Origin: Patescibacteria group bacterium
GTDB taxonomy: Bacteria > Patescibacteriota > Patescibacteriia > UBA10025 > JAHIVO01
Assembly: GCA_041650915.1 (NCBI GenBank)
Contig: JBAZKE010000003.1
Span: forward strand, 21,226 to 85,225
Direction: 5' to 3'
Length of the DNA: 64,000 bases
Positions within the stretch are counted from its first letter, which is position 1. Every line of letters begins with the position of its first letter. A model generated the notes under the pieces. That model searched no databases, had not been told where the DNA came from, and was given only the letters and a program-made list of their open reading frames with translations. Of the stretch, positions 4,657 to 40,572 are shown piece by piece. A program made the position numbers and the translations under genes.

Positions 4657-7600
4657 ATGTTTCGATACCTGAAAAACAGGCTCTTCCGCGCACTCGCCGC
4701 GAAGCCCCGTACGTCGAAGGCGGTGCTGACGGCGCTCGTTGCGTTTGTGCTGCTCGGCATCAATGTTTTTGCATTTGCGACACCCGCCCAGGCGGGCTTC
4801 ATCGGCGATATTGTCGGATTGGCGCTTGACCCGATCGTCAACGTTATTGCGAGCATCATGCTGTTTATTGCGACGATACTGGGCAAGTTATTAGTCGTGC
4901 TCATCGATATTTTACTCAACATCGTCAAGTACAACGATTTTACCAATGCGCGCGCGGTGGAGATCGGGTGGGTTGTCGTCCGCGACCTGTGCAACATGTT
5001 CTTTATCGTCGTGCTGCTCATCATCGCGTTTGGCACCATCTTCCGCATCGAGAACTACAAATACAACAGGCTGCTGCCCAAGCTGATTCTCATGGCGGTG
5101 CTCATCAATTTTTCCAAGCTCATTGCGGGATTCCTCATTGATCTCGGGCAGGTCGTCATGATGACGTTTGTCAATGCGTTTGCGGACGCTGCGGCGACGA
5201 ATTTTACAAGCGCGTTCAAGCTGCAGCAGATGCTCGGATTTTTGGATAATACCGGGGGCGGAACAGGCGGCGGTCCGAGCAACTGGTCGCTCCTCGGGGG
5301 GCCGTTCCTCGCCATCATGCTGCTCATCGTCGCCCTCATGGTCATGCTCGCGATGGTGGTCGTGTTCCTCACGCGCATCATCATGCTGTGGATCTTGGTC
5401 GCCGTTTCGCCGCTCGCCTTTTTGCTCGAGGTGCTGCCTGGCGGCTCAAAGTACGCACAGCAGTGGTGGTCGAAGTTCGGGCAGTGGGTTACGACCGGCC
5501 CGATCCTTGCCTTTTTCCTGTGGCTGTCGCTCGCGGTGCTGTCAACGAGGGACATCGAGCTCGGGATTCAGGATACCGTGATCACGGAGCAGCCCAGCGG
5601 CGGCGGCGTCGTCTCGGCGGGGCTGTCGGCCGTTTCTACCTCGAAGAACATGGTCGGCTTCATGTTTTCAATCGCGATGATGCTCATATCCCTGTCCATT
5701 GCCGGCGGGCTCGGCGGTGTTGCGGGCAGCGTTGCCGGAAAAATGACAGATAAGGTCCGCGCGATGGGTTCCGCCCCATTCAGGAGCTCGAGCCTCATCG
5801 GAAAAGGCAGGAAGGCGCTGACCGGGTACGTTGGAGAAGAGCTCGGCTCGCGGCTCGGTATCGCCTCGGTGCGGGACAAGTGGAAAGAGGGGTGGCAGCG
5901 GCACCGTGAGCGGACCCGCCGCGACCGTATCAGTAAAATGAGGGCAAAGGCGGCGGAACGCGGCGGTGTACTGGGAACGCTCGCCACGCCGACCCAGTTT
6001 TTTGACCAGTACTGGGGCGCGAAGGGCATCAAGCGCGCGTTCCAAGAGGGGATCGGAGGCAAGAAGTCGAGGGAAGCTGACAATAGGATGAAAACGGCAA
6101 AGGAAAAGTATGAGGCAACAAAGGAAGAGGCTGATACGCTCGATACGGTTGCAAATGGGCCTACCATGCACGAGTACCGGGGGTATATGGACAATAAGCG
6201 GGCGCTCACGCGGAAGTTCGATACGGCACGGCAAATGGGGTCAACTCTTGAGGTAAGCGACGATGCGGATAATCCGGACGGCATTGCTGATATTCTCGCT
6301 GCAGCGGGGAATAAAAAGAAGGAACTCGAAGGCCTGGCCGCCATTGAAGCGCGTAAAATAAAGGAAGCCAATGACGAGAAGAAAGAAATCGGCGCACTGT
6401 CGCCTGAGAGAACGGCAAAGCTGGATGAGGACATCAAAACGTATGTAGCGGACTATGAAAAGTATAAGAAAGAAGCAGCGGAAATAGAAGTTGCACTCAC
6501 TGAAGGTAAAAGGACGCGTACGATCAAGCTCAAACCAGAGTGGGAATTTACGGCTGAGTCGCGTAAAGAGCTCGATGCCACGATCGGGAAGATGGAGGCG
6601 TACTATAAGGAGGGCAAGCTCGCAAAAAGCAAGGCAGGCCGGGATGAGCTGCAGACTGCACTCGCTGCAATCCGGGCAAGAGAGGAAGTGGAGAAGCGGA
6701 ATTTTTTTACTGCGCGCCAGGAAGCTGACAGAATTCGGCCTGCATTCAACTTTGAAATGCTCCGTGAGCAGGCGCTTGATATCGCAAAAGAAAAGTCAGA
6801 AATGCTCACGGACAGCTGGCAAGAGCTCTGGGAGATACACCAGGACGCTGAGCGGCGCGGCGATTCTACGCGGGCAGCTGCTGCATACCTCAAAGCAACG
6901 GAGTATGCAAATGACAATGAGATACAAAATATGGCCGGTGACGGGAGCGGAGCCGAGGGGTTGAAATCGTTCATCATGAACCGGTACGTAGGCAAGAAAG
7001 GCTTTAAACACAATCAGGCTGCGATTGACGCATGGGAAACAGAAAACCCCGGAACCAAGATTGAAGAAGAAGGGATGGGCTTGTCGGAAGCTCAGGCACT
7101 CAACATTGCCAATTTGGTGTCATATGCCGCGGAAAAAGCCGGCCACTGGATGAATGCGCGTGCCGTGGGAGTTGAGAACGGCAAGCAGTTCTGGCAGAAG
7201 GAGAATGATCGCCTGATCGAGCAGATAGCTGAGATCAGGAAAATCGACCCTGAAACATTCCAGCGCCGCGTGAACCGGCTCGGGTGGGGCATTGAGCTGC
7301 CCAAAGGGGGGGAAGACCGCGCTGAACGTGCACGCAACTTCCAGCTGACCGGCGAACGGGAATTTAAAAATAGCCCGTTTGCGCTTGCCTTTTTTGAGGA
7401 CAACTGGAAGCGGTGGGAAGAGCTGCTCAGCCGGGGCCGGTTCAATGAGAGCGTCGCGCTCAGCATCACGAGCGGTGAAAACTATGATGAGCTAAAGCGG
7501 CTTGCCGCATTCCAAAAAACAACAGACGTGACGGCAAAGGGCGGCTGGAGTATGGAGAGGATGGTGGATGAGATTAAAAAATTCGGGGCCTCCCGCAGCG

Positions 7601-7770
7601 GCGATCCGTTTAGGGTTATCAGAGAAAAAACGTGGATGAAGACAGAAGGAGGAGGCAAACTCATGGAGAAAGAGTACTATACGGGCAAGCCGTCGCCGGA
7701 TCAGGAAAAAGAGTTGAAAACTTCGATTCCGGGCATCAAGAAAAAAACAAAGGAAGAAAAGCAACCATAG
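4657..7770 (+). CDS. TrbL/VirB6-like polytopic membrane protein of a T4SS-like system, with a long charged coiled-coil C-terminal extension.
   Basis: The first ATG after the upstream stop at 4595 is at 4657, in frame with ORF 4531..7770. About 7 hydrophobic helices fill the first ~400 aa. The remaining ~600 aa are K/E-rich. A VirB3/VirB4 cluster lies downstream. Confidence 0.55.
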   Translation: MFRYLKNRLFRALAAKPRTSKAVLTALVAFVLLGINVFAFATPAQAGFIGDIVGLALDPIVNVIASIMLFIATILGKLLVVLIDILLNIVKYNDFTNARAVEIGWVVVRDLCNMFFIVVLLIIAFGTIFRIENYKYNRLLPKLILMAVLINFSKLIAGFLIDLGQVVMMTFVNAFADAAATNFTSAFKLQQMLGFLDNTGGGTGGGPSNWSLLGGPFLAIMLLIVALMVMLAMVVVFLTRIIMLWILVAVSPLAFLLEVLPGGSKYAQQWWSKFGQWVTTGPILAFFLWLSLAVLSTRDIELGIQDTVITEQPSGGGVVSAGLSAVSTSKNMVGFMFSIAMMLISLSIAGGLGGVAGSVAGKMTDKVRAMGSAPFRSSSLIGKGRKALTGYVGEELGSRLGIASVRDKWKEGWQRHRERTRRDRISKMRAKAAERGGVLGTLATPTQFFDQYWGAKGIKRAFQEGIGGKKSREADNRMKTAKEKYEATKEEADTLDTVANGPTMHEYRGYMDNKRALTRKFDTARQMGSTLEVSDDADNPDGIADILAAAGNKKKELEGLAAIEARKIKEANDEKKEIGALSPERTAKLDEDIKTYVADYEKYKKEAAEIEVALTEGKRTRTIKLKPEWEFTAESRKELDATIGKMEAYYKEGKLAKSKAGRDELQTALAAIRAREEVEKRNFFTARQEADRIRPAFNFEMLREQALDIAKEKSEMLTDSWQELWEIHQDAERRGDSTRAAAAYLKATEYANDNEIQNMAGDGSGAEGLKSFIMNRYVGKKGFKHNQAAIDAWETENPGTKIEEEGMGLSEAQALNIANLVSYAAEKAGHWMNARAVGVENGKQFWQKENDRLIEQIAEIRKIDPETFQRRVNRLGWGIELPKGGEDRAERARNFQLTGEREFKNSPFALAFFEDNWKRWEELLSRGRFNESVALSITSGENYDELKRLAAFQKTTDVTAKGGWSMERMVDEIKKFGASRSGDPFRVIREKTWMKTEGGGKLMEKEYYTGKPSPDQEKELKTSIPGIKKKTKEEKQP

Positions 7771-9772: not shown

Positions 9773-10729
9773 TCAATTTTTTTTCAGTTCGTCGTACAGG
9801 ACGAGGATCGTCCAGAACGGCAGAAGAGAGACGTACGGTATGAATTCCGCTACGGCTCCGATCGCATACCGGCGCACTTTTTTTACCATTTTGCCGCGAA
9901 CGCCCGACCCGCGGTAGACGAGTATGACGGTGAGCGCCGATGTTATGGCGATGTTGAGCAGTGCGGCGGTTAATCCGACGTCGAAGTACTGGGTTATGAT
10001 GTCGTATGTGTCTTTTGAGAGTGTGAGGCCGATCGTGAGCATGAAGAGCGGCTGAATGAGAGTTCTTGCGATAGCGCCGACGTTCATGAGTTTTGCGGCA
10101 ACCTTTGCCGCGCTCTGGAGCTTCTTTTTTGCATTGAGAGCTTTTTGTGTAGCTGCTGCCGCTTTTTCGCCTCCGATTTTTCGTGCCGCCTTGGTGAGCT
10201 TTGAAGTATCGCCTGCCCCCGGCTCTCCTTCCTGCTGCTGAGTTTCTTCGCCCTTGCCCCGCTCGGTCATATTTTCGGGAAGCGTTTGCCCTTGCCTTCT
10301 TTCATTGTTCAGTGCACGTTTTGTTGCAGGTTCGTCTTTCGGCGAGACGCTGAGGTTTTCACGGATACGATCCCTGAGCGTTTCCCGTTTTTCCTCCGGA
10401 GCTCCGGCCGCTGCCTGCTGGGCTGCCGCTGCCAGCTCGTCGGTATCGCCGCGAATGCCTTCCCCGAGCCCGCTTTCCGGGCGGTCCGCAGCTTTTTTGC
10501 CAGTTTCTTCGTCACGGTAGGACTGCAACCCTGCTTCAAGAGCGCCGCGTACCGTGCGATTTTTCGTTTCGCCGTGTGGCACCGATTTTGATTTTGCCGC
10601 CGATCCCACCATGGCCGCAACCCCGTCCTCTGCCGGTACTGAGAGGTTCGTGCCGGCCGCCTGTGCAGCTATTTGGCCCTTGGCGAGGGCTGTGTGAATT
10701 GTATGCGGATCAGAATAAAAATTTGCCAT
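9773..10729 (-). CDS. Hypothetical membrane protein with a Lys/Glu/Ala-rich N-terminal region and C-terminal TM helices.
   Basis: ORF 9773..10768 on the minus strand. The internal Met at 10729 (MANFYS) avoids overlap with the upstream gene that stops at 10737. Hydrophobic C-terminus LIQPLFMLTIGLTL...AITSALTVILVY. Confidence 0.55.
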   Translation of the reverse strand: MANFYSDPHTIHTALAKGQIAAQAAGTNLSVPAEDGVAAMVGSAAKSKSVPHGETKNRTVRGALEAGLQSYRDEETGKKAADRPESGLGEGIRGDTDELAAAAQQAAAGAPEEKRETLRDRIRENLSVSPKDEPATKRALNNERRQGQTLPENMTERGKGEETQQQEGEPGAGDTSKLTKAARKIGGEKAAAATQKALNAKKKLQSAAKVAAKLMNVGAIARTLIQPLFMLTIGLTLSKDTYDIITQYFDVGLTAALLNIAITSALTVILVYRGSGVRGKMVKKVRRYAIGAVAEFIPYVSLLPFWTILVLYDELKKN

Positions 10730-10736
10730 AGGTTTT

Positions 10737-11081
10737 TTAGCCCATTTGCTTCGTGAATTCGTCAGCATTAATGCCGATCTCTACTACCGTTTTGTGCAGG
10801 TTATCTTCTTGGGAAGCCCGCTCGCTGAGCAGTTGCCGCTTGCGTTTGCTATTCATTTCCAGTACGATCGCATCGCTGATTTTTTTTACCGTATCGGCGG
10901 TCTGCAGTGACATTGTTTCTACGAGCTCGTCGAAAGCGCCGATACCGTCTTCGGGCCGGGCGCTTCTTTCGAGCGCACTGATAAAGGCATCCATTTTTTG
11001 GAGGACGTTCCCATCGTACTGCCCGTTAGTACTGCTGAGATATGTCTGTATTTTGTCGTTCAGTATCGTTTTTAAATCCAT
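10737..11081 (-). CDS. Small hypothetical protein (114 aa).
   Basis: Minus-strand ORF directly upstream of 9773..10729. It sits in a divergent arrangement with the promoter region 11082-11346. Confidence 0.5.
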   Translation of the reverse strand: MDLKTILNDKIQTYLSSTNGQYDGNVLQKMDAFISALERSARPEDGIGAFDELVETMSLQTADTVKKISDAIVLEMNSKRKRQLLSERASQEDNLHKTVVEIGINADEFTKQMG

Positions 11082-11346: not shown

Positions 11347-12789
11347 ATGAGTGACGATACAACATCGGACAACAGTTTACCTGAAGGCTTCTTGTTAAAA
11401 GACAAGGCCGGAAAGCTTAAAAAAGTCCTGGACGGGCAGCTGGTTGATTTTCAGGTAGCGCCGCGGGAGGAACAGCCCGCGCCTCAATCCAGCGTGCCCC
11501 CTGTTCCGCCGCATCCGGCATCAACCGCGAGTCTGCCCGCCGGTTTTTCCAGAGAGCCCCGTGCAGTATCGCAAACTATTCCGGCAGAACCGAAAGTTGA
11601 AAGCCGGTTGCCAAGGCCGGCGCTGGCACCGAGCGCGCCAATTTCTTCCTCAAGCAAGGCGCCTTTCCTGATCGAGCCGGAAGACGAGGAGGAGATCAAG
11701 CGGCACGTCAAAGGTTTGGAGCGGATGGCCCCTCGCGAAGAAAAGCCAGCCGGTTCATCTGCCCAGGCAATTATTGATGAGATTCAGCGCGAGTGTGGCA
11801 TCTCTTTTGCAAGCGAAGTGATGAGCACGCGTTTTAAGAAGGTAGTCGAGTCGAGGCTTCGGGAGCTGCGTACCGCCATTGAAGCCCGGGAAGTTTTGAT
11901 GAGGCCGTCCAAGGTCGGAGGCCTCGAGCTCCCTGCTGAAAAAGCTGATGCGGTCGTCAGTGCCGTTAACCAAAAAATCGGCAGGGGGCGCCCGGAGGGC
12001 GGAACCACACAGCACGATGCGATGCTCGGCATGGCTGGGCAATTGTTGGAACAGCCGCAGCAACAGGCTGAGGATCAACGCACAGTGCCGTCCTCTGCTG
12101 CTGGCACCATGGTCCAAGCACCTCCTCCATTCATTCCGCTGCCAAAGCGTGCACCCGAACCGATAGAAAAAATCGAGCCGCAGCCCGCGCCTCCATTGAG
12201 CACGGGGATGGTACAGTTCACGCCTCAGGAGCCGACTGCCACCCCTCAACCTGCGCCCGCCCAAGAGCAGCCCCGGCCGCAGAACATTCCAACGGAGGTA
12301 GCGCCGTCTCCACGGGGTGTAGATGAAGCCGTGCGTGCACCCCGCAGCGTATCTGCAGCAACAGCGAAGCTGTACCGGGAACCTTCGGACGGGATGCCCC
12401 GCAGGGTGCCGATAGCAGATGAAGATGACCGTCCTAAGCTCGTCGATATTAAGGAACTGCGCAAAGTCATCGGGCCCGTGGAAGAGCTCGGGGAGATCGA
12501 CCTCAAAGAATTCCGGCGGCTCGGAACGAACCCCGAGGAAGCTGCCGCGAAAATTGCCGAAAAAATCGATCTGCTCGAGGAAGAATCGTGGCAGCAGCGG
12601 TCTGAGGGCATCAGCGCATGGAAGCAGTCGCCGCTTTTCCTGCGGTACGTATCGCTCGGGCAGGAGAGCCTCACGGGCGGTATCACTCTCGATGAGGTGA
12701 TCCAGAAGCACGTCGCAGGCGGCGGCCTCAACCTGCAGAAAGAAGAATTTATTGCCATTAATGAGCTTAATAGTAGGCTCGGGACATAG
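11347..12789 (+). CDS. Pro/Ala-rich hypothetical protein, first gene of the T4SS-like operon.
   Basis: The ORF 11326..12789 has an in-frame ATG at 11347 (MSDDTTSD). Low-complexity PAPQ-rich centre. Its stop lies 6 nt before the PrgI-like gene. Confidence 0.6.
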   Translation: MSDDTTSDNSLPEGFLLKDKAGKLKKVLDGQLVDFQVAPREEQPAPQSSVPPVPPHPASTASLPAGFSREPRAVSQTIPAEPKVESRLPRPALAPSAPISSSSKAPFLIEPEDEEEIKRHVKGLERMAPREEKPAGSSAQAIIDEIQRECGISFASEVMSTRFKKVVESRLRELRTAIEAREVLMRPSKVGGLELPAEKADAVVSAVNQKIGRGRPEGGTTQHDAMLGMAGQLLEQPQQQAEDQRTVPSSAAGTMVQAPPPFIPLPKRAPEPIEKIEPQPAPPLSTGMVQFTPQEPTATPQPAPAQEQPRPQNIPTEVAPSPRGVDEAVRAPRSVSAATAKLYREPSDGMPRRVPIADEDDRPKLVDIKELRKVIGPVEELGEIDLKEFRRLGTNPEEAAAKIAEKIDLLEEESWQQRSEGISAWKQSPLFLRYVSLGQESLTGGITLDEVIQKHVAGGGLNLQKEEFIAINELNSRLGT

Positions 12790-12794
12790 CACGT

Positions 12795-13220
12795 ATGCAG
12801 CAGTTCGTAGTGCCACAGTTCCTCGACGTCGAGAGTAAAATTATCGGTCCGCTGACCGTGCGCCAGTTTGTGACGTTTCTCATCGGCGCCGGGATGATTT
12901 TTCTCGTCTTTAAGCTGGCGAGCTTTTGGGTCGCCGCTATTGAAGGGCTGTTGATTTTTGCGCTGACCGGCATGTTTGCTTTCTTAAAAATTAACGGTCG
13001 CCCGTTCCACTTTTTTCTGCTGAACATGATGCAGACGCTCCGGCGGCCGACACTCAAAGTATGGAATAAAGCGTATGTAGGTCAGCGCATCAAGGAAGAA
13101 AAGCCCGAGGCGTTGCCTCCCCAGGTACCAAAGAAGCGCCTCACCGTTTCCCGGCTCAATGAACTGTCGCTCGTCGTTGATACCGGCGGCGCATACCAAG
13201 AAGAAATCGATGAGGGATAA
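12795..13220 (+). CDS. PrgI/VirB3-like small membrane protein of a conjugative-type T4SS.
   Basis: The N-terminus MQQFVVPQFLDVESKIIGPLTVRQF matches the conserved PrgI-family motif F.D.E.KI.GPLT.RQF, followed by two TM helices. It lies directly upstream of VirB4. Confidence 0.65.
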   Translation: MQQFVVPQFLDVESKIIGPLTVRQFVTFLIGAGMIFLVFKLASFWVAAIEGLLIFALTGMFAFLKINGRPFHFFLLNMMQTLRRPTLKVWNKAYVGQRIKEEKPEALPPQVPKKRLTVSRLNELSLVVDTGGAYQEEIDEG

Positions 13221-13237
13221 TATTCCCTGTAGCACGT

Positions 13238-13924
13238 ATGGCTGAGAAAAAAGAAACCATCGCAAAAAAAGCGTCAGTAATCTCAACACAGCAGTACCTC
13301 GATATTCTCGAAGTACGCGACGATGCGATTATTCTCCGTGACGGCACCTTGCGCGGGATTATTCTCGTTTCCTCGATCAACTTTGCGCTCAAGTCAGAGG
13401 ATGAACAGAATGCCGTTATCAGCGGGTACGTCCAGTTTTTAAATTCACTCGACTTTCCACTCCAGATACTCATACAATCACGCAAGCTCAACATTGACGA
13501 GTATCTCGATCGCCTCAAGCTGATTGAGAAAGAGCAAACGAACGAGCTGCTGAAAACGCAAACGCGCGAGTACCGGCAGTACATCGCAGAGCTTGTCCAG
13601 CTGGCAGATATCATGACGAAACGTTTCTTTCTCGTGGTGCCGTACTCTGTCGGCTCGATCAAGTCGAAGGGTTTCCTTGCCCGTATGCGCGAGGCGCTCT
13701 CACCCTCGACGGTGATCACCATCAAGCAGAAGAAGTTTGAGAAGCACCGGACAGAGCTTTGGAAGCGCATGGAATACGTGATTGACGGGCTCAGTTCGTT
13801 CGGGCTCAACGGCAAGGCGCTCGATACGCAGGGGCTTATCGAAGTGTTCTATAATACCTACAATCCGGATACGTACGACCAGCAGGAGCTCGTTGACGTC
13901 GGTAAATTAAACCTTGAGCAGTAA
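13238..13924 (+). CDS. VirB4/TraC-family conjugal ATPase, N-terminal fragment (228 aa).
   Basis: ILRDGTLRGIILVSSINFALKSEDEQNAVISGYVQFLNSL is the typical N-terminal domain of CagE/TrbE/VirB4 proteins. It ends with TAA at 13922-13924, 2 nt before the next ATG. Confidence 0.6.
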   Translation: MAEKKETIAKKASVISTQQYLDILEVRDDAIILRDGTLRGIILVSSINFALKSEDEQNAVISGYVQFLNSLDFPLQILIQSRKLNIDEYLDRLKLIEKEQTNELLKTQTREYRQYIAELVQLADIMTKRFFLVVPYSVGSIKSKGFLARMREALSPSTVITIKQKKFEKHRTELWKRMEYVIDGLSSFGLNGKALDTQGLIEVFYNTYNPDTYDQQELVDVGKLNLEQ

Positions 13925-13926
13925 CC

Positions 13927-15807
13927 ATGGTAGAGTTATTTAGAAAAACTAAGTCGCTGCCGACTGAAACCCAGCCGCAGCTCACGAGGGAGGAGCAGGA
14001 ACAGCTCGCCCGTGAGCAGCTCGAAGAGAAGAAGACGATTCTCGAATCAGAGAAGGTATACCGCCGTGGAGTCGTAACGGTCAGGGACCTCATCGCCCCC
14101 GCCGCGATGAAGATCGAATCCCGTTTCCTCGAGCTGGGGTCGAAATTCGTCCGCACGATTTTCGTAGTCGCGTATCCGCGCTACATTCGAGTCGGCTGGT
14201 TCGCGCCGATAATCAACCTCAACGTACCGCTCGATATCTCGATGTTTTTCTATCCGGTCGGCTCAGAAATAATCTTGAAGCAACTTCGGAACAAGACCGG
14301 CGCGCTCGAGGCGCAGATACTCGCCGATGCCGAGAAGGGCGCGCCCCGCGATCCGATCCGGGAAACGGCGCTCCGTGATATTGAGAAGCTGCGCGACGAC
14401 CTGACGCAAGGCATTGAGCGGTTCTTCCAGTTTGCGCTCTATGTGACTATCTACGCTGACGACAAGGAGAGCCTCGATAAGATCAGCGAAAAGGTTGAGT
14501 CTCTATTCGGTTCGCGGCTCGTGTATACGAAGCGCGTCTTTTACCAAGCAGAGCAGGGCTTTAACTCGACGTTGCCGCTCGCGAACGATGAGCTCGGCAT
14601 CGGCTTCAATATGAGCTCTTCACCGTGCGCTTCTTCATTCCCGTTCATCTCGTCTGAGCTGACTTCGGATGACGGCATACTGTACGGCATCAACCGGCAC
14701 AACAATAGCCTGATCCTCTTCGATCGTTTTTCGCTGCAGAATGCGAACGCAGTTGTTTTTGCAACATCCGGCGCCGGCAAGAGCTACGCCGTGAAGCTCG
14801 AAATTCTCAGGAGCATGATGCTCGGCACCGACGTGATCGTCATCGATCCCGAAATGGAGTATAAGTACCTCTCGGATGCTGTCGGCGGAACCTATATAAG
14901 CATTTCGTTGAGTTCGGAGAGCAACATCAACCTTTTCGACCTTCCCCGCCCGACCAGAAAGGATGAGAAGACGAGCGATATCATACGGTCGGCGGTCATC
15001 ACCATCAAAGGCCAGCTGAGGCTTATGCTCGGCGAGTTTACGCACGAAGAGGACTCGGTCATCGACCGCGCGCTCATCGAAACGTACGCAAAAAAAGATA
15101 TTACCGCCGATGCGGACCTCGCACACGCCGAGCCGCCGCTCCTGTCGGACTTCCAGGAAGTGCTCGAGGGCATGGTAGGCGCTGAGCAGCTTGTGACGCG
15201 CCTCAAGAAGTACACCGAAGGAACGTTCGCCGGCCTTCTCAACAATCCGACCAACGTCGAGCTCTCCAACCAGCTCGTCGTATTCTCGGTGCGGGACCTC
15301 GAGGACGAGCTGAAGCCGATCGGCATCTCGCTCATCGTGTCCTACGTGTGGAATACGGTACGCTCCGAGCTTAAGAAGCGCATCATGGTCATCGATGAGG
15401 CGTGGTGGCTCATGCAGCAGGAGGAGTCCGCTAAGTTTATTTACGCGCTCGTCAAGCGGTGCCGCAAGTACTACCTCGGCGTAACGACGATCACGCAGGA
15501 CGTCAACGATTTCCTGCAATCCCCCTACGGCCAGGCGATCGTCACCAACTCGGCGATCCAGCTCCTCATGAAGCAGTCCGAAGCTGCCATTGATCTGATT
15601 GTCAAGACGTTCCTCCTCACCGAAGGGGAGAAGTACCTTTTGCTCGAGTGCGGCGTCGGCGAGGGAATATTTTTCGCCGGCTCAAAGCACGCAGCCATAA
15701 AAATTGTCGCATCGTATACCGAAGACCAGATTATCACCTCTGACCCGCGCCAGCTGCTGGAAATCGAGGCGGCAAAAAAAGAATTTAATGAGGCAGTCGA
15801 GGAGTAG
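13927..15807 (+). CDS. virB4: VirB4/TrbE/CagE-family T4SS ATPase, C-terminal ATPase part (626 aa).
   Basis: Walker A FATSGAGKSYAVK, Walker B-like MVIDEAWWLM, VirB4-typical motifs and size. It is in a different frame from the N-terminal fragment. Confidence 0.75.
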   Translation: MVELFRKTKSLPTETQPQLTREEQEQLAREQLEEKKTILESEKVYRRGVVTVRDLIAPAAMKIESRFLELGSKFVRTIFVVAYPRYIRVGWFAPIINLNVPLDISMFFYPVGSEIILKQLRNKTGALEAQILADAEKGAPRDPIRETALRDIEKLRDDLTQGIERFFQFALYVTIYADDKESLDKISEKVESLFGSRLVYTKRVFYQAEQGFNSTLPLANDELGIGFNMSSSPCASSFPFISSELTSDDGILYGINRHNNSLILFDRFSLQNANAVVFATSGAGKSYAVKLEILRSMMLGTDVIVIDPEMEYKYLSDAVGGTYISISLSSESNINLFDLPRPTRKDEKTSDIIRSAVITIKGQLRLMLGEFTHEEDSVIDRALIETYAKKDITADADLAHAEPPLLSDFQEVLEGMVGAEQLVTRLKKYTEGTFAGLLNNPTNVELSNQLVVFSVRDLEDELKPIGISLIVSYVWNTVRSELKKRIMVIDEAWWLMQQEESAKFIYALVKRCRKYYLGVTTITQDVNDFLQSPYGQAIVTNSAIQLLMKQSEAAIDLIVKTFLLTEGEKYLLLECGVGEGIFFAGSKHAAIKIVASYTEDQIITSDPRQLLEIEAAKKEFNEAVEE

Positions 15808-15862: not shown

Positions 15863-16468
15863 ATGGAACAGCAAAAAAAGAAGGCAATCTATATATGGGT
15901 AATGGTCGGAATCGTGGTAATTCTGATTGGCGTTGTCATGTGGATCCAATTTTTCCGCGAAGCGCCGGTTGACACAGTCCCCGCCGTTAACCAGCCGACG
16001 AATACCATTGCCGCCAATGTTACCGTCGTGAACGCAACCGAAGAGCCTGCCCCTGCCGATGAGGAGATCGACGCCGTGGAGACAGAGGAGCTGACCGTCA
16101 CGAGGCTCGCGATCCTCTTCGCGGAGCGGTTCGGAAGCTACTCGACCGACGCTGCGTATGAGAATATATCCAACCTTAAGGGGTACATGACGGCGTCGAT
16201 GCAAAATTGGGCTGACCAGTACGTCGCCGACCAGCGCGAGCTGGAAGCGGATTCGTATTTCGCGATCGTGACAAAAGCGCGGTCGACGAAGGTGGTTTCC
16301 CTCAGTGACGATGCGGCTTCCGTCGCAGTGACGGCGCAGCGTACTCCAGATGAGCTGAGCGGGCTGAACAGCCCGTTCATCCAGACGATAGTTATTGGCC
16401 TGTCACACGACGGAGAAGCGTGGCTCGTAGAGAGCGCCGTATGGCAGGACCAGGATCTCGGAGAGTAA
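15863..16468 (+). CDS. Membrane-anchored small protein. It is a possible VirB8-like component: a single N-terminal TM plus a ~150-aa globular domain.
   Basis: TM WVMVGIVVILIGVVMWIQFF followed by a soluble domain. Position between VirB4 and the pilin-like gene. No diagnostic motif, so the function call is positional. Confidence 0.4.
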   Translation: MEQQKKKAIYIWVMVGIVVILIGVVMWIQFFREAPVDTVPAVNQPTNTIAANVTVVNATEEPAPADEEIDAVETEELTVTRLAILFAERFGSYSTDAAYENISNLKGYMTASMQNWADQYVADQRELEADSYFAIVTKARSTKVVSLSDDAASVAVTAQRTPDELSGLNSPFIQTIVIGLSHDGEAWLVESAVWQDQDLGE

Positions 16469-16506: not shown

Positions 16507-17934
16507 ATGGCACGACAGAAGAACATACTACTATTCGGCGCGCTGCTGGCAGTGATGGCCTGCAGCCTCATACTCGCCTCGCTGCCGCTGCAGGCAGCCG
16601 CCCAAGAGGGCGAGGAGGCGGCTGCTGATGAGTGCGCGTTTGACTGCAATGGGGATTCTGACAGCTACGTCCGGCTCAACATCGTGATCCCCGGCGTCGC
16701 TCCGATGACGCCGTGCGGCTTTCCCGCGGTGAAGAATATGCAGTGCTTCATACGGGGGATGTACATCTACTTCGCGTGGACCGCGGGCATCCTCGCGACG
16801 GCCATGATCATGTTCGGCGGCTTCAAGTATGTCGTTTCGTTCGGCAGCCCGACGAAGGTCGCCGATGCAAAGGATACCATCATCTCAGCCATGATCGGCC
16901 TTGCGCTCCTCCTCGCGTCGTATACGATCCTGTACTTTATCAATCCGAACATCGTTAACCTCAAGGACCTTGATCTGCAGAGCATCGGCGCGCTCAAAGA
17001 GGGCGTTATCTGGTGTGAAGATATCGCGCCGGGTGGGGCACAAGAGCAGTTGCTCGATCCGCAGCTTGATCCGATGGATGCAAATAACCGTCCACGTCCC
17101 ATAGATCTCGGTGAAACGTGGGATACTTCGCAATTGAAGTGCGGGGTTGAGGGATTGATGGTATATACGGACGGCCATGAGCAGCCTTGCGTATACCAGG
17201 GAGCATATAGCGGTGCAGGTTGTCCAGACCAGAATGGATCACAGACAGTGTGTGCGCCTGATTACCTGACCGGCGAAGGGTTTAAGTGCGTGGAGCCCGA
17301 ACGGTACTGCACATTCGCGTTTGCCGGCACGTGCGAGCGGGTTGATGAGGTTTTTCAAACGCAGCCGCAATTTGGGGCGGGCTTATGCGAGGCGAGCAGG
17401 GACGGATCGGGCTGCATTTACCGTGATTCGGATGTGCTCAGTTGTGAGGAAGCGCAGCATGAGAATTACTACCAGGTGTACTGCGATACGGGGAATAACC
17501 TGCAGCGGGGCACCGGGCAGAATACGGACTGCTGGGGCATCGGAGATCCAACGGAACCCGAATACCGCAACGAGCCGGATGAGTCGAGCGTATGGAACGG
17601 CCACACGAGGAAGTGCGTCGACCGGCGGACCGGCGGGTACGACTGGGCGATCTGCTGCCTCGAGCTGTCCAATACCAGCGGGGGTATAGAGTGTCGAAAT
17701 GAGTGCAACAGCGATGAGATCATGGTCGCGAACTGCATCCTGCCGGAACATATCGAAACTCCCGTTATTGAAGACCAGGGTTTGCTCGATGCCTGGGTCA
17801 GAACCATCAGGAATGCAGAAACCGGCAGGATTATTACCGGATGCACGGATGCCCAGCTCAGCCAGAATATGGTGTGCTGCATGGAGATGGAATTTGAATA
17901 TGTAACCAAGCAGGATCCCGAACAGCCCCGATAA
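16507..17934 (+). CDS. T4SS pilin-like (TrbC/VirB2-like) protein with a signal peptide and two hydrophobic helices, fused to a ~330-aa Cys-rich C-terminal extension.
   Basis: In-frame ATG at 16507 gives a signal peptide MARQKNILLFGALLAVMACSLILASLPLQAAAQE. The helices are IYFAWTAGILATAMIMFGGFKYV and TIISAMIGLALLLASYTILYFINPN. The C-terminal extension contains more than 25 Cys. Confidence 0.5.
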   Translation: MARQKNILLFGALLAVMACSLILASLPLQAAAQEGEEAAADECAFDCNGDSDSYVRLNIVIPGVAPMTPCGFPAVKNMQCFIRGMYIYFAWTAGILATAMIMFGGFKYVVSFGSPTKVADAKDTIISAMIGLALLLASYTILYFINPNIVNLKDLDLQSIGALKEGVIWCEDIAPGGAQEQLLDPQLDPMDANNRPRPIDLGETWDTSQLKCGVEGLMVYTDGHEQPCVYQGAYSGAGCPDQNGSQTVCAPDYLTGEGFKCVEPERYCTFAFAGTCERVDEVFQTQPQFGAGLCEASRDGSGCIYRDSDVLSCEEAQHENYYQVYCDTGNNLQRGTGQNTDCWGIGDPTEPEYRNEPDESSVWNGHTRKCVDRRTGGYDWAICCLELSNTSGGIECRNECNSDEIMVANCILPEHIETPVIEDQGLLDAWVRTIRNAETGRIITGCTDAQLSQNMVCCMEMEFEYVTKQDPEQPR

Positions 17935-17957
17935 TACATTACCAATCGCATTGAGCT

Positions 17958-19223
17958 ATGAATCCTAAGCGTATACTTCTCATCGTTTTATTCGTCATCC
18001 TCGTTCTTGCTTTCGGGGCATTCATTTATTTCGTGCTCATACGGGACATCGGCAAGCCGCTCAACATCGGGAACCAGAACGTAAATGGGGCGGCCAATAC
18101 GAATTCATCCCTGCCGGTCATCAACGGCGCGGAAAACGTAAATCAGTATGTGCCGGTGAATGAGAATACGAACGTCCCAACCATCAACACAACGCCGTCC
18201 GTAAACCGCGCGCAGTTTGATCCCGTCGCCGCAGGGGGAGAAACGCAGGCTTCGGTTATTGTCAGTGACCCGTCGCAAGCTGCCGCCCCGGCGGTGGATG
18301 GCAACGGGCTGCGGTACTACGATGCCGATGAGGGCAAGTTTTATACAATTGATAAGGACGGCAATGCCGCGGCACTCTCGGAGCAGACTTTTCCCGAAGC
18401 CCGGGAAATTGAATGGTCGCCGACGAGCAACCAGGCCGTCATCGGATTCCCCGATAATACGAATATTTTATACAATTTCGATACCGGCGTTCAGGTGACG
18501 CTCCCGAAAGAATGGGAGGACATCGAATTTTCAACTACCGGCGATCAGATAGGATTTCTCAACCTGACGGATGACGAACGTGCGCGTTGGCTCGCGACAG
18601 CGAATCCGGACGGCTCTGATGCGCAGCTGCTTGAGCCGCTCGGGGATAACGCGGATGACGTCGATGTGAACTGGTCCCCTTCGGGCCAGGTCGTGGCGCT
18701 TTTCCGTGAATCGTACAACGCTGACGGGCAGGAGGCATTCCTCATCGGGCTGCACGGTGAAAATTTTAAGTCCATCATCACTGACGGACGGGGCTTTGAG
18801 GGGCTCTGGTCCCCTGACGGCAGCAGGCTCCTGTACAATGTTTTCAACGCCGATTCGCGCTACAATCCGGTACTGCACCTCGTTGATGCATCGGGCGATC
18901 TGGTCGGCGCCAATGACGTTAATTTGGAATTGCAGACGTGGGTCAGCAGGTGCGCTTTTTCGAAACTCCATACCTTTGCATATTGCGCCGTGCCCCAGTA
19001 CCTGCCGACCGGGAGCGGATTGTTTCCCGATGCCGCCGGTACGACGAACGACAGCATCTACCGCATCGATACCCGGAACGGATCAAAGACGATTATCGCC
19101 ATGCCCCGCTTTTCCGAAAACGACCAGTATACCGTTGAATCACTCTTTCTCTCAAGCGATGAAGCGACTCTGTACTACGTTGACGGTGAGCAGAGCAAGG
19201 TATTCAGCATTGCGCTGCAGTAG
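17958..19223 (+). CDS. Membrane-anchored TolB-like/PD40 beta-propeller protein.
   Basis: N-terminal TM LLIVLFVILVLAFGAFIYFVLI. Repeats EWSPTSNQAV, WSPSGQVVALF, WSPDGSRLLY. Confidence 0.6.
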   Translation: MNPKRILLIVLFVILVLAFGAFIYFVLIRDIGKPLNIGNQNVNGAANTNSSLPVINGAENVNQYVPVNENTNVPTINTTPSVNRAQFDPVAAGGETQASVIVSDPSQAAAPAVDGNGLRYYDADEGKFYTIDKDGNAAALSEQTFPEAREIEWSPTSNQAVIGFPDNTNILYNFDTGVQVTLPKEWEDIEFSTTGDQIGFLNLTDDERARWLATANPDGSDAQLLEPLGDNADDVDVNWSPSGQVVALFRESYNADGQEAFLIGLHGENFKSIITDGRGFEGLWSPDGSRLLYNVFNADSRYNPVLHLVDASGDLVGANDVNLELQTWVSRCAFSKLHTFAYCAVPQYLPTGSGLFPDAAGTTNDSIYRIDTRNGSKTIIAMPRFSENDQYTVESLFLSSDEATLYYVDGEQSKVFSIALQ

Positions 19224-19290
19224 CACACCGGCGTATGCATTCTGATCCGTACGTATGCCCTGTGCACTTTTTGGATACCGGTAATGAGCT

Positions 19291-20643
19291 ATGGCCAAGA
19301 CAGTAACAATTTTTTCATGCACAAAGTGCGGTGCGCAGTTCCCTAAGTGGCAAGGTCGGTGCACCGAATGCGGTTCGTGGGGCACCTTTAGCAAGGGGCA
19401 GCCAGCTGTCCGGCAGCGAAACGCACGCCCGACTGCAGGGCGAGCCGCTCCGGTCGAGACGCTTGCTACTATCGGTCCGGCGCAGGACGAACGGCTTGAG
19501 AGTTCGGTCCGCGAGTTTGACCGCGTACTCGGAGGCGGGATCGTCGCGGGGAGCTTGGCGCTGCTCGGGGGCGATCCGGGAATTGGCAAGTCAACGCTCA
19601 TACTCCAGGTCGGCGGCAAGCTCGCCAGCCTTGGGCGCGAGGTGCTGTACGTGTCCGGCGAGGAATCCTCGGTGCAGGTCAAGGATCGCTTCACAAGGCT
19701 CGGGCTTACGACCGACAAGCTTAAGTTTCTCGGTGAGACGGACATCGAGACGGTACGTGCGACCGTGGAACAGCACAAGCCCGCACTCGTTATTATCGAT
19801 TCGATCCAGACCGTGCATACGGCCGAGGTCGATGCAGAGGCAGGGAGCATCAGCCAGCTGAAAGCATGCACTGCCAAGCTCTCAGAGGCGGCGCGGGACC
19901 TCAATACAGCCATGATCGTGATCGGGCACGTGACGAAGAAGGGCGGCGTCGCCGGGCCCCGTACGCTCGAGCACCTCGTCGACGTGGTGCTGTACCTCGA
20001 GGGTGACCGGCACCATGCGTTCCGCGTGCTCCGTGCGGTCAAGAACCGGTTCGGCTCAACCGCGGAGGTTGGGGTGTTTGACATGCAGGCGGGAGGTCTG
20101 GCTGAGGTGCGGAACCCATCGGAAATTTTTCTCGCGGACCGCACGGCAGAGAGCCCGGGATCGGTCGTGACCGCGGTCGTCGAGGGTTCGCGCGCCTTCC
20201 TCGTTGAAGTGCAGGCGCTCGTCTCCCGTGCGAACTTTGGGTACCCGCAGCGCCGCGCGGCAGGATTCGATTTCAACCGGCTGCAGATGCTCGTCGCGGT
20301 ACTTACCAAAAAAGCCGGGCTGTACCTCGGGAACCAGGATGTGCACGTGAACGTCGCCGGCGGCTTTCGGGTCGGGGAGCCCGCTGCGGACCTCGCGGTG
20401 TGCCTCGCGATCGCGTCAGCGCTGAAAAATAAGCCCATACCAAAAACACTCGCCGTATTCGGCGAGGTAGGCTTGGGCGGCGAGCTGCGGGCTGTGGGAC
20501 AGAGCGACAAGCGCCTGGATGAGATCGTCAAGATGGGCTTCAAGGAAGCTCTGATCCCAAGGACAAAACTTTCACAGGAGCCAGGCGGATTACAGATTGT
20601 GATGCTTGATTCGCTCAGCGAGGTTATCAGAGATTTTGTGTAA
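19291..20643 (+). CDS. radA: DNA repair protein RadA/Sms.
   Basis: N-terminal Zn finger CTKCGAQFPKWQGRCTECGSW. Walker A GGDPGIGKST. KNRFG motif. C-terminal Lon-like domain. Confidence 0.9.
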   Translation: MAKTVTIFSCTKCGAQFPKWQGRCTECGSWGTFSKGQPAVRQRNARPTAGRAAPVETLATIGPAQDERLESSVREFDRVLGGGIVAGSLALLGGDPGIGKSTLILQVGGKLASLGREVLYVSGEESSVQVKDRFTRLGLTTDKLKFLGETDIETVRATVEQHKPALVIIDSIQTVHTAEVDAEAGSISQLKACTAKLSEAARDLNTAMIVIGHVTKKGGVAGPRTLEHLVDVVLYLEGDRHHAFRVLRAVKNRFGSTAEVGVFDMQAGGLAEVRNPSEIFLADRTAESPGSVVTAVVEGSRAFLVEVQALVSRANFGYPQRRAAGFDFNRLQMLVAVLTKKAGLYLGNQDVHVNVAGGFRVGEPAADLAVCLAIASALKNKPIPKTLAVFGEVGLGGELRAVGQSDKRLDEIVKMGFKEALIPRTKLSQEPGGLQIVMLDSLSEVIRDFV

Positions 20644-24022: not shown

Positions 24023-24094
24023 TGCCCTCGGCAGGAATCGAACCTGCATTTCAGGCTCCGCAAGCTTGCGTCCTATCCGTTGAACGACGAGGGC
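24023..24094 (-). tRNA. tRNA of 72 nt with no encoded CCA. The anticodon loop reads UUGCGGA, so the tentative call is tRNA-Arg(GCG) with G37.
   Basis: Acceptor stem GCCCTCG/CGAGGGC, D-arm GTTC/GGAC with a GG loop, T-arm GCAGG-TTCGATT-CCTGC, discriminator A. The anticodon stem has one A.C mismatch. Confidence 0.6.
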
Positions 24095-24124
24095 TCGATA
24101 TGTTTACAGTGGGCTGAAATGCTG

Positions 24125-24643
24125 CTACAGCTTCATGACCCGGCCGAGACCGTCTGAGAAAGATTCATTGACCTTTTCCGGATCTTCTTCGATGTATTTG
24201 AGCAGGATCTGCCTGATCTTTAAGGGATTTTGGCTCTCGAGTGCAATGCTGATCGACGGCCGCACGCCGGACTTAAATGAAAAGTATAGGTTTTTCACTT
24301 CAGGCGGATCGTATACGATCCAGAACTGCTTGATGGCATTCCATTCGTAAAATGTGCTTTCACCGAGCACGAGCCCATCTTCGGTCAGCTGGGCTTGCAG
24401 CCTTCTGGGTGATCTGCGGTACTCGAGCGCATAGACCCCGACCAAAATAACGAGGAGCAGGAGGAAGAGGTAATTTTGGGTGCTCACCGCGTAGATTGTA
24501 AGTGCGCAAACAATCGTAATTGCGACTGCGTACCACAGCTTACCGCGGAAGTATTTCGTGTATTCCGGAAATTCCCATGAGGCAAGGACTTCCCCAAAGT
24601 CGATTTTTTGATTGGGTGTTTTTCCTGCGTTGGATTGCGCCAT
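24125..24643 (-). CDS. Hypothetical two-TM membrane protein (172 aa).
   Basis: Minus-strand ORF with hydrophobic segments LWYAVAITIVCALTIYAV and LFLLLLVILVGVYAL. Confidence 0.55.
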   Translation of the reverse strand: MAQSNAGKTPNQKIDFGEVLASWEFPEYTKYFRGKLWYAVAITIVCALTIYAVSTQNYLFLLLLVILVGVYALEYRRSPRRLQAQLTEDGLVLGESTFYEWNAIKQFWIVYDPPEVKNLYFSFKSGVRPSISIALESQNPLKIRQILLKYIEEDPEKVNESFSDGLGRVMKL

Positions 24644-24837
24644 ATATCGTAGGTATTAACTTGTTATGTGGTCCCGGAGAGTGCCTCTATAGTATACAGA
24701 AAAACAGGAAAAAATTCACGTTTGGTCACTCATCGATTTCCTGACGGAAATCTAGGTCGATTCCGCCTCGCGGTGTTCGTTTTCCGCCAGGGGCGGTGGA
24801 AATTCTCGCTGGGACGCTCCAGGCTTTCTCTTTTTTA

Positions 24838-25285
24838 CGCTCCTTCGTTCACGTTGTTCACTTCGGAGGCGGAGGGATTCCGCTCCGCGCCGGGGCTCGC
24901 GGCTACTCCATTGCATTCCGCAGCATCGCTCGCCCTTCTCATCCCTACGCTCCACACGCAGGTGTGGAGCTCCGCTCCTTCGTTCACGTTGTTCACTTCG
25001 GAGGCGGAGGGATTCCGCTCCGCGCCTGGGCTCGCGGCTACTCCATTGCATTCCGCAGCATCGCTCGCCCTTCTCATCCCTACGCTCCACACGCAGGTGT
25101 GGAGCTCCGCTCCTTCGTTCACGTTGTTCACTTCGGAGGCGGAGGGATTCCGCTCCGCGCCTGGGCTCGTGGCTACTCCATTGCATTCCGCAGCATCGCT
25201 CGCCCTTCTCATCCCTACGCTCCACACGCAGGTGTGGAGCTCCGCTCCTTCGTTCACGTTGTTCACTTCGGAGGCGGAGGGATTC
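24838..25285. repeat. Tandem direct repeat of 3.3 units of 135 bp in the tRNA-Ser(TGA) trailer. Each unit begins with a copy of the last 16 nt of the tRNA.
   Basis: Units 24838-24972, 24973-25107 and 25108-25242 differ by 1-2 SNPs. A partial unit 25243-25285 overlaps the genuine tRNA 3' end. The shared motif is cttcGGAGGCGGAGGGATTC. Confidence 0.85.
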
Positions 25286-25355
25286 GAACCCCCGAGACCT
25301 TTGCGGGTCTAACGGTTTTCAAGACCGTCCCATTCAACCGCTCTGGCACGCCTCC
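25269..25355 (-). tRNA. tRNA-Ser(TGA), type II with a long variable arm, no encoded CCA.
   Basis: GGAGGCG acceptor, anticodon loop CUUGAAA, variable stem AGACC/GGTCT, T-arm GGGGG-TTCGAAT-CCCTC, discriminator G. Confidence 0.85.
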
Positions 25356-25625
25356 ATCTGTGCGAAAGGTACGGTATGTACCGTTCGCTTTTTGAATCAA
25401 ACCGCAGCATAAGTTGTAGTGCGGCCCATTTTTTATTAATGTATTGGTGGAGAGGGCGAGATTCGGTCACAAATAAATTTCCTGACGAAAATTTTTTACG
25501 ACCCCGCCTCGCGGCGCTCGCCTCCCCTCGGCAGGCTCGGGGAACTCGCGCATCGCTGCGGCTTTCTCATCTCGATGTCCCACAAGCAGTTGCGGGACTC
25601 CCTTCCTCATTCACTAACGTTCATT

Positions 25626-25716
25626 CGGAGAGGGCGAGATTCGAACTCGCGAAGGGGTTTTAAGGCCCCTTAACGGTTTAGCAAACCGCTGCCTTCAGCC
25701 ACTCGGCCACCTCTCC
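25626..25716 (-). tRNA. tRNA-Ser(GCT), type II, no encoded CCA.
   Basis: GGAGAGG acceptor, anticodon loop UUGCUAA, long variable arm AAGGGGCCTTAAAACCCCTTC, T-arm GCGAG-TTCGAAT-CTCGC, discriminator G. Confidence 0.85.
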
Positions 25717-36337: not shown

Positions 36338-36341
36338 GCGT

Positions 36342-40559: not shown

Positions 40560-40572
40560 TAATACGATTGCA

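Follow-up and report, generated by a model that had tools for sequence, protein, structure and literature searches.

In the window, by which we mean the whole analysed stretch of 64,000 nucleotides, a VirB4-type ATPase is encoded by two adjacent reading frames, ORF1 and ORF2. This raises the question whether a single virB4 gene was broken, or whether the two-gene state is genuine. An earlier note on the same DNA left three answers side by side: a translationally coupled split, which it regarded as rare for VirB4, a recent pseudogenisation, or a local assembly error. Taking related loci and published systems into account, we consider it very probable that the locus is a genuine and ancient two-gene VirB4 inside a chromosomal type IV secretion system (T4SS) of Patescibacteria (CPR).

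The junction and the surrounding gene block

The sizes, starts, stops and frames of both ORFs given in the earlier note were all confirmed from the sequence (Table 1). ORF1 starts with the ATG at 13238 and lies in a different frame than ORF2, while only 2 nt ('cc') separate its stop codon from the ORF2 start (TAA-cc-ATG). Relative to ORF1, ORF2 occupies the -1 frame, with an open overlap of both frames at 13918-13921. Since TGA at 13915-13917 closes the ORF2 frame, which is open from 13918 only, a fusion is possible solely through an event inside 13916-13921. The earlier statement that an indel away from the junction cannot fuse the two ORFs is thus borne out.

Table 1. Features of the T4SS gene block and of the ORF1-ORF2 junction, in window positions.
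Feature	Position	Strand	Evidence
1037-aa VirB6-like (TrbL_3) polytopic membrane protein	4657..7770	+	Precomputed PF19590 TrbL_3; upstream in 28/80 loci
Conserved 480-aa protein (orf480), no Pfam match, first gene of the block	11347..12789	+	Same relative position in 73/80 loci
PrgI/VirB3-like small membrane protein, 141 aa, immediately upstream of ORF1	12795..13220	+	PF12666 PrgI, 33 bits (cutoff 27)
ORF1, 228 aa, TrsD-like / 'TraC-like', detached VirB4 N-terminal domain	13238..13924	+	Profiles, fold, dN/dS
Junction: TGA 13915 (ORF2 frame), TAA 13922-13924 (ORF1 stop), 'cc', ATG 13927 (ORF2)	13915..13929	+	
ORF2, 626 aa, VirB4-type ATPase core	13927..15807	+	NF045971, Pfam, 4AG5
Conserved 201-aa protein (orf201), N-terminal TM segment, no Pfam match, directly downstream of VirB4	15863..16468	+	Same relative position in 64/80 loci
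475-aa protein, VirB2-like T4SS pilin domain, Cys-rich C-terminal extension	16507..17934	+	PF18895 T4SS_pilin, 31.5 bits (cutoff 26.6)

Both ORFs are part of a conserved block with the order orf480, PrgI/VirB3, TrsD, VirB4, orf201. Of 80 loci from different GTDB species, 79 have ORF1 directly beside VirB4 on one strand, and the PrgI gene is found upstream of ORF1 on that strand equally often (79/80). With genes for a VirB6-like protein and a VirB2-like pilin nearby, the locus carries the T4SS set of Patescibacteria, in which VirB4 is accompanied by TrsD and PrgI/VirB3. The VirB6-like assignment stems from precomputed tables, and a local Pfam scan of this 1037-aa protein gave no match. The cluster is flanked by radA and tRNA genes on a contig of 273 kb. 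No relaxase domain was detected among the ORFs scanned, which comprise part of those in the window, and an Rfam scan, which returned three tRNAs only, showed no regulatory RNAs around the junction.

Identity of the two proteins

ORF2 scores 351.5 bits (E 9.6e-105) against the NCBIfam model NF045971 (VirB4-like conjugal transfer ATPase, CD1110 family) and thereby passes the cutoff of 325. ORF1 matches the same model at positions 20-140 of 752 (E 2e-7), in agreement with the earlier reading of the pair as VirB4 N-domain and VirB4 ATPase. ORF2 itself does not cover the full length of NF045971, as its match (positions 153-730) starts only at 153, and the stretch 20-140 comes from ORF1 as a protein of its own. 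On the second model, NF045975 (894 positions), ORF1 occupies 97-233 (E 7e-10) and ORF2 285-893. Judged by these profile positions, both ORFs together are colinear with single-chain VirB4, the break falling at a variable linker, and ORF1 is the counterpart of the first ~200 residues of the full-length protein. The translation of ORF2 contains a Walker A (ATSGAGKS) and a Walker B motif (IMVIDE), and Pfam assigns P-loop_TraG and AAA_10, along with a weak CagE_TrbE_VirB match at residues 71-217. Furthermore, it matches 4AG5, the C-terminal domain of VirB4 (E 1e-44), and residues 445-740 of TrwK. ORF2 comprises the second half of the canonical VirB4 N-terminal region followed by the C-terminal Walker A/B ATPase domain.

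ORF1 shows the layout of TrsD: a stand-alone protein of ~200-230 aa whose gene follows that of a small membrane protein and directly precedes that of a VirB4-like ATPase. The homology to TrsD of the staphylococcal plasmid pSK41 is remote, as an end-to-end alignment gave 21% identity and the TrsD model NF041427 (TrsD/TraD family conjugative transfer protein) scored ORF1 with 28.4 bits (E 1.3e-6), well below its cutoff of 200, whereas pSK41 TrsD reaches 227.6 bits. An hhalign comparison of the ORF1 profile with the single pSK41 TrsD sequence yielded a probability of 57% over 69 columns. At the level of sequence, ORF1 is a remote relative of TrsD that falls outside the narrow NF041427 subfamily. 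Precomputed tables list PF26593 (TraC-like) for the ORF1 protein (E <= 1e-5) and for all of its 120 best homologues, while our own hmmscan of ORF1 against Pfam returned no family, possibly because the Pfam copy used was without the PF26593 model. When an AF2 model of ORF1 was compared with PDB folds, the top 14 matches were all TrwK/VirB4 of R388 (prob 0.94-1.0). The TM-score of the fold match is low (0.37), owing to the moderate confidence of the AF2 model (pLDDT 70). The comparison of the ORF1 profile with R388 TrwK by hhalign was not significant (probability 1%), and a search of PDB sequences with a profile of ORF1 homologues gave only a designed repeat protein and a PRPP synthetase, both chance matches.

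Conservation of the split and competing explanations

The earlier note had proposed to compare orthologous loci for a fused or split VirB4. Of the 80 loci 79 could be assessed, since the contig of the 80th ends too soon, and judged by the C-terminal residues of ORF1, the break in VirB4 falls at one common residue in all 79. Thus the pairing of ORF1 and ORF2 is not a chance event. The spacer between both genes ranges from -26 to +511 nt (21-511 nt in 28 of the 79 loci), and the frame relation is spread over the three possibilities as 33/27/19. ORF1 is less conserved among the relatives than ORF2 (50-76% versus 69-87% identity). In the closest relatives the start codon and the first residues of ORF2 (MVEL) are kept. 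In total 4230 homologues of ORF1 were found, and their annotated sources include Kerfeldbacteria, Falkowbacteria, Uhrbacteria and groups like these. The best 120 of these 4230 all measure 207-250 aa, and among the best 150 representatives of 50% clusters 149 are short stand-alone proteins. A rare fused homologue of 898 aa (P0262), the gene of which occurs on 5 contigs from at least three sequencing runs, joins the two parts by a Pro/Ala-rich linker: its residues 8-223 align to ORF1 (41% identity) and residues 289-892 to ORF2 (50% identity).

The closest relative, L086, comes from an independent sample, shares 90% amino acid and 79% nucleotide identity and retains TAA-NN-ATG at the junction. 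In comparison to it, pN and pS are 0.057 and 0.73 for ORF1 (dN/dS ~0.02) and 0.024 and 0.74 for ORF2 (dN/dS 0.007). Synonymous sites are saturated between the two loci, and strong purifying selection acts on both ORFs.

Four other explanations have to be weighed against a genuine two-gene VirB4. ORF1 might descend from the VirB4 N-domain and yet serve today as an accessory or regulatory protein in its own right, such as an assembly factor or substrate adaptor, without being a stoichiometric part of the ATPase. Its lower conservation would fit such a role, as would the disordered C-terminal tails of 100-200 aa in some homologues (P0149, P0151), and in some genomes the spacers reach 511 nt, which makes separate expression of the two genes possible. 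However, ORF1 has remained beside VirB4 on the same strand in all loci but one, a natural fused form exists, and the segment missing from ORF2 is exactly what ORF1 supplies. We therefore consider this explanation improbable. Still less likely is a programmed recoding, in which a -1 frameshift or a bypass of the stop codon would deliver a fused VirB4 of ~855 aa beside or instead of two products. The -1 frame of ORF2 and the short open overlap would permit it, but positions 13916-13924 (GAGCAGTAA) contain no slippery heptamer (X XXY YYZ), and since both frame relation and spacer vary among the relatives, no recoding signal can be conserved.

The two remaining explanations, which had both been raised in the earlier note, are extremely improbable. 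If the locus were a recent pseudogene, a single virB4 would have been broken by a nonsense mutation or frameshift, with ORF1 left as a decaying remnant, and different frames only 2 nt apart, as well as full-length fused VirB4 in other lineages, are what one would expect; this is refuted by the common end residue in 79 of 79 loci at merely 50-76% identity, by the 120 best homologues, which have stayed open over the same length, by the conserved ORF2 start and by the purifying selection on both ORFs. An assembly or sequencing error, that is an indel at 13916-13921 artificially splitting one ORF, is conceivable for a metagenome-assembled contig with such a tiny fusable window, but is likewise refuted: the junctions of the ENA (megahit) and Logan assemblies are identical, L086 shares the arrangement, and all assessable relatives are split, often with spacers too long for an indel to bridge.

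Known counterparts and proposed role

The genuine two-gene VirB4 at this locus is not without precedent. Pairs of TrsD/TraD and TrsE/TraE are known from staphylococcal conjugative plasmids such as pGO1 and pSK41 (MPF_FATA, pGO1 subclass), with the same gene order and sizes as found here. In pSK41, a small protein of 135 aa precedes TrsD (227 aa), which is followed after a gap of 14 nt by a VirB4-like DUF87 ATPase of 672 aa; the corresponding proteins of our locus measure 141, 228 and 626 aa. On NF045975 the ATPases start at nearly the same position (265 for pSK41 TraE, 285 for ORF2). In contrast to the probably chromosomal locus beside radA and tRNA genes, the system of pSK41 resides on a plasmid and serves conjugation, and its operon also encodes a relaxase and a coupling protein. 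The same split triplet of PrgI, N-domain protein and VirB4 occurs on Firmicutes megaplasmids (Pontibacillus NZ_CP062975, C. perfringens pJFP838A), where N-domain proteins of 274 and 312 aa, annotated as hypothetical only and 25-30% identical to ORF1 (tblastn), accompany ATPases of 621 and 641 aa. These triplets are again plasmid-borne and belong to cultured Bacillota. Gram-positive elements of the CD1110 and Mbov_0397 families, as well as R388 (TrwK/VirB4), have a single VirB4 chain instead of the two polypeptides of our locus.

According to a recent survey (Quiñonero-Coronel et al., 2025; PMC12102498), TrsD homologues beside virB4 are the commonest T4SS component within Patescibacteria: they were found in 2,221 assemblies and adjoin virB4 in 1,664 of them, and the homologue of S. 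epibionticum ML1 is listed as essential. The earlier view of the split as rare is consequently wrong for this lineage, where it is the rule. In component set, in the position of TrsD beside virB4 and in its probable chromosomal location, our locus is another member of the described Patescibacteria T4SS (PMC12102498; Wang et al., 2023, on S. epibionticum) without substantive difference. As the two-piece VirB4 is the normal and already published arrangement, here as in pSK41/pGO1-type plasmids, the locus is ordinary. In the survey, TrsD counts as a component of its own that is remotely homologous to the VirB4 N-terminus; the word 'split' is absent from its text, and the passages considered do not describe the conserved break point, the spacer spectrum or the rare fused form. 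TrsD is not named in the main text of Guglielmini et al. (2014; PMC4027160).

We propose that the two polypeptides assemble non-covalently into a complete VirB4 protomer. A docking role of the TrsD-like piece can be envisioned by analogy to the N-terminal domain of TrwK in the R388 structure: it would tether the ATPase hexamer to the PrgI/VirB3 membrane subunit and to the inner-membrane platform. Either the assembly of a VirB2-like pilus or substrate transfer could then be powered by the ATPase.

The 2-nt stop-start arrangement without a Shine-Dalgarno sequence suggests that ORF2 is translated by termination-reinitiation, which would lead to a roughly equimolar output. However, our search revealed a Shine-Dalgarno sequence neither before ORF2 nor before any other gene of the cluster, and its absence is thus no specific evidence for coupling. 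Of the coupled split in the earlier note, the split stands, while coupling is plausible at this locus and is not a conserved property or general requirement of the family, because more than a third of the spacers (28/79) exceed 20 nt.

The same break occurs in pSK41-type plasmids, in Firmicutes megaplasmids and in Patescibacteria, and the disordered linker at which it lies has in rare cases been re-fused (P0262). Should common descent be the reason, one might speculate, rather tentatively, that the Patescibacteria T4SS derives specifically from a TrsD-bearing (pGO1-like) monoderm conjugation lineage and that the N-domain is a functional module, namely an adaptor with a dosage of its own that links PrgI/VirB3 to the ATPase. 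TrsD would then gain an assigned function. Epibiotic growth of Patescibacteria reportedly depends on their T4SS as an essential system. For annotation, such pairs should be neither flagged as broken virB4 nor 'repaired' in scans, and a suitable name for the 228-aa 'hypothetical protein' is TrsD-like VirB4 N-domain subunit. Finally, the natural split and its rare fused forms offer a handle for testing the role of the VirB4 N-domain.

ORF1 and ORF2 as proposed parts of one VirB4

ORF2 encodes an ATPase of the VirB4 type. On the NCBIfam model for CD1110-family VirB4 proteins (NF045971) it scored 351.5 bits, above the curated cutoff of 325. It starts at position 153 of this 752-position profile and covers positions 285-893 of the full-length VirB4 profile NF045975. 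Pfam matches comprise P-loop_TraG, AAA_10 and, weakly, CagE_TrbE_VirB (residues 71-217), while the crystal structure of a VirB4 C-terminal domain (4AG5, E 1e-44) and TrwK residues 445-740 were matched as well. In the translation, the Walker motifs A (ATSGAGKS) and B (IMVIDE) can be read. The segment missing from ORF2 is, on the same profiles, supplied by ORF1, which matches positions 20-140 of NF045971 and 97-233 of the 894-position NF045975. The stand-alone TrsD/TraD model NF041427 matched ORF1 with E 1.3e-6, its score being far under the model cutoff, and PF26593 ('TraC-like') is assigned in precomputed tables, while our local Pfam scan gave no PF26593 match for ORF1. An AlphaFold2 model of ORF1 (16 homologues as input, mean pLDDT 70) was compared against the PDB: the best 14 matches are all TrwK/VirB4 chains of the R388 type IV secretion system (T4SS) at probabilities of 0.94-1.0, and the 15th reached only 0.1.

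Features of the T4SS region and of the fused relative
Feature	Position	Strand	Size	Remark	Source
Dockerin ORF	33-4595	+	1520 aa	Dockerin type I, residues 80-134 (41 bits); weak CBM_4_9 match	
VirB6-like TrbL_3 protein			1037 aa	flanks block	
Two ORFs	9773-11081	-	331 aa, 114 aa		
orf480	11347-12789	+			
PrgI/VirB3-like	12795-13220	+			
ORF1	ATG 13238 to TAA 13922-13924	+	228 aa	VirB4 N-domain, TrsD-like	ORF list, raw sequence
ORF2	ATG 13927 to 15807	+	626 aa	other frame than ORF1	ORF list, raw sequence
orf201	15863-16468	+			
VirB2-like pilin-domain protein	16507-17934	+	475 aa	PF18895 at N-terminus; flanks block	
radA				flanks block	
tRNA Arg-GCG, Ser-TGA, Ser-GCT	24023-25716	-			
Three ORFs	33191-42801	+	1048, 1439, 742 aa	upstream of giant ORF, same strand	
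Giant ORF	42805-57660	+	4951 aa		
P0262 gene	L087 4001-6697 (also L088, L089)		898 aa	fused TraC-like + VirB4, loci of relatives	

Reality and age of the split

The earlier note had considered a rare coupled split, recent pseudogenisation or an assembly error; all of its coordinates agree with the ORF list and with the sequence itself. Two nucleotides ('cc') separate both genes, and TGA at 13915-13917 shuts the ORF2 frame just 5' of its start; as the note held, both frames could be fused solely by an event within 13916-13921.

That the split is genuine became evident from the comparison of related loci. A GTDB scan with one genome per species yielded 567 confirmed stretches coding an ORF1 relative, and 79 of the best 80 extend far enough to assess the split. 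In all 79, the C-terminus of the ORF1 relative falls on the same residues (…L-x-[VIL]-E-x), and an ATPase start lies downstream. Spacers range from -26 to +511 nt (median 10; at most 20 nt in 51 loci, longer in 28), and all three relative frames occur (33/27/19). Conserved end residues together with variable spacers and frames cannot be explained by an indel, a frameshift signal or readthrough. We therefore reject pseudogenisation, an assembly error and programmed recoding, the last because of the three frame relations and spacers of up to +511 nt.

Recent pseudogenisation is further contradicted by selection. The closest relative found (L086, a locus from a different sample) shares 90% (ORF1) and 96% (ORF2) protein identity at 79% DNA identity, with pN of 0.057 and 0.024 and dN/dS of about 0.02 and about 0.007, respectively, while pS is saturated (0.73-0.74). 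An assembly error is refuted, since the junction is identical in a 273-kb megahit contig from ENA and in an independently assembled Logan contig (SRR8542065), L086 keeps TAA-NN-ATG and other relatives are split too.

A search at E <= 1e-3 found 4230 homologues of ORF1; all of the top 120 are Patescibacteria proteins of 207-250 aa. When clustered at 50% identity, the best 150 representatives comprise 149 short proteins that stand alone (116-443 aa), some with disordered tails, and one fused protein. In two homologues (P0149, P0151), low-complexity, P/A/Q/T-rich disordered C-terminal tails of at least 200 aa lie beyond the conserved TrsD-like domain. Many records with a Patescibacteria-type locus (L015, L017, L018 and others; TPA_asm binchicken/SRP co-assemblies) are titled 'uncultured Gammaproteobacteria bacterium'; the organism field of these GTDB records looks mislabelled.

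The supposed rarity of the arrangement did not hold, as it is the already published two-gene layout of TrsD and VirB4. In plasmid pSK41 of Staphylococcus aureus, the triplet recurs as a protein of 135 aa, TrsD (227 aa; end-to-end alignment to ORF1, 21% identity) and, after a 14-nt gap, a DUF87/VirB4-like ATPase of 672 aa. On NF045975, this ATPase starts at position 265 and ORF2 at 285, so the break falls at essentially one point in both. The split layout also occurs on megaplasmids of Firmicutes, where PrgI is accompanied by an N-domain protein (274 or 312 aa) and a VirB4 (621 or 641 aa) in Pontibacillus and in C. perfringens pJFP838A. According to Quiñonero-Coronel et al. (2025, PMC12102498), a TrsD homologue is the most abundant T4SS component of Patescibacteria (2,272 homologues in 2,221 assemblies, 1,664 VirB4-associated), that of S. 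epibionticum ML1 is given as essential, and the VirB4 clade of Patescibacteria is nested within MPF_FATA.

Fused form, proposed assembly and translation

P0262, the single fused form among the 150 cluster representatives, aligns to ORF1 at residues 8-223 (41% identity) and to ORF2 at residues 289-892 (50% identity), both parts being separated by a Pro/Ala-rich linker. Its residues 3-882 match NF045975 positions 92-893 in a single stretch. Five contigs, which stem from at least three independent sequencing runs, carry the gene directly 3' of PrgI. Compared with the split relatives, this sequence indicates that split and fused states interconvert at a flexible linker, which supports ORF1 as a detachable N-domain of VirB4.

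For the pair, colinearity, conservation, selection and synteny are shown. Both polypeptides would join into a complete VirB4 protomer. In R388 structures, the TrwK N-terminal domain links the ATPase hexamer to the membrane platform; by analogy, the TrsD-like ORF1 may connect the hexamer to PrgI/VirB3 and this platform.

The 2-nt spacer suggests that ORF2 is translated here by termination-reinitiation. Since none of the 11 cluster genes examined is preceded by a Shine-Dalgarno (SD) sequence and many relatives have long spacers, coupling is a local feature of this locus and not a family trait. The sequence '(a/g)tagcacgtATG' lies immediately at the starts of both PrgI and ORF1 (12784-12797, 13227-13240), and 'tgagctATG' at those of orf421 and radA (17949-17960, 19282-19293); such shared sequences may represent an SD-independent start context.

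Gene neighbourhood

The block from orf480 to orf201 keeps its gene order in 64-79 of the best 80 loci, and the T4SS locus is probably chromosomal. According to a 2025 review (PMC12857230), the Patescibacteria T4SS is needed for epibiotic growth. The pilin-domain protein, unusually large for a pilin and with a long Cys-rich C-terminal extension, is conserved in only 27 of 80 related loci. Two minus-strand ORFs interrupt the plus-strand cluster; the larger is K/E/A-rich with a hydrophobic C-terminus, and they are nearly missing from related loci (3/80 and 0/80, respectively). The Dockerin ORF immediately precedes the VirB6-like gene, and three tRNA genes are found downstream of the cluster, at a distance of about 4 kb. 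The giant ORF, whose region gave only weak BNR/Sortilin-type and DUF6923 repeat matches in Pfam, possibly encodes a giant surface protein.
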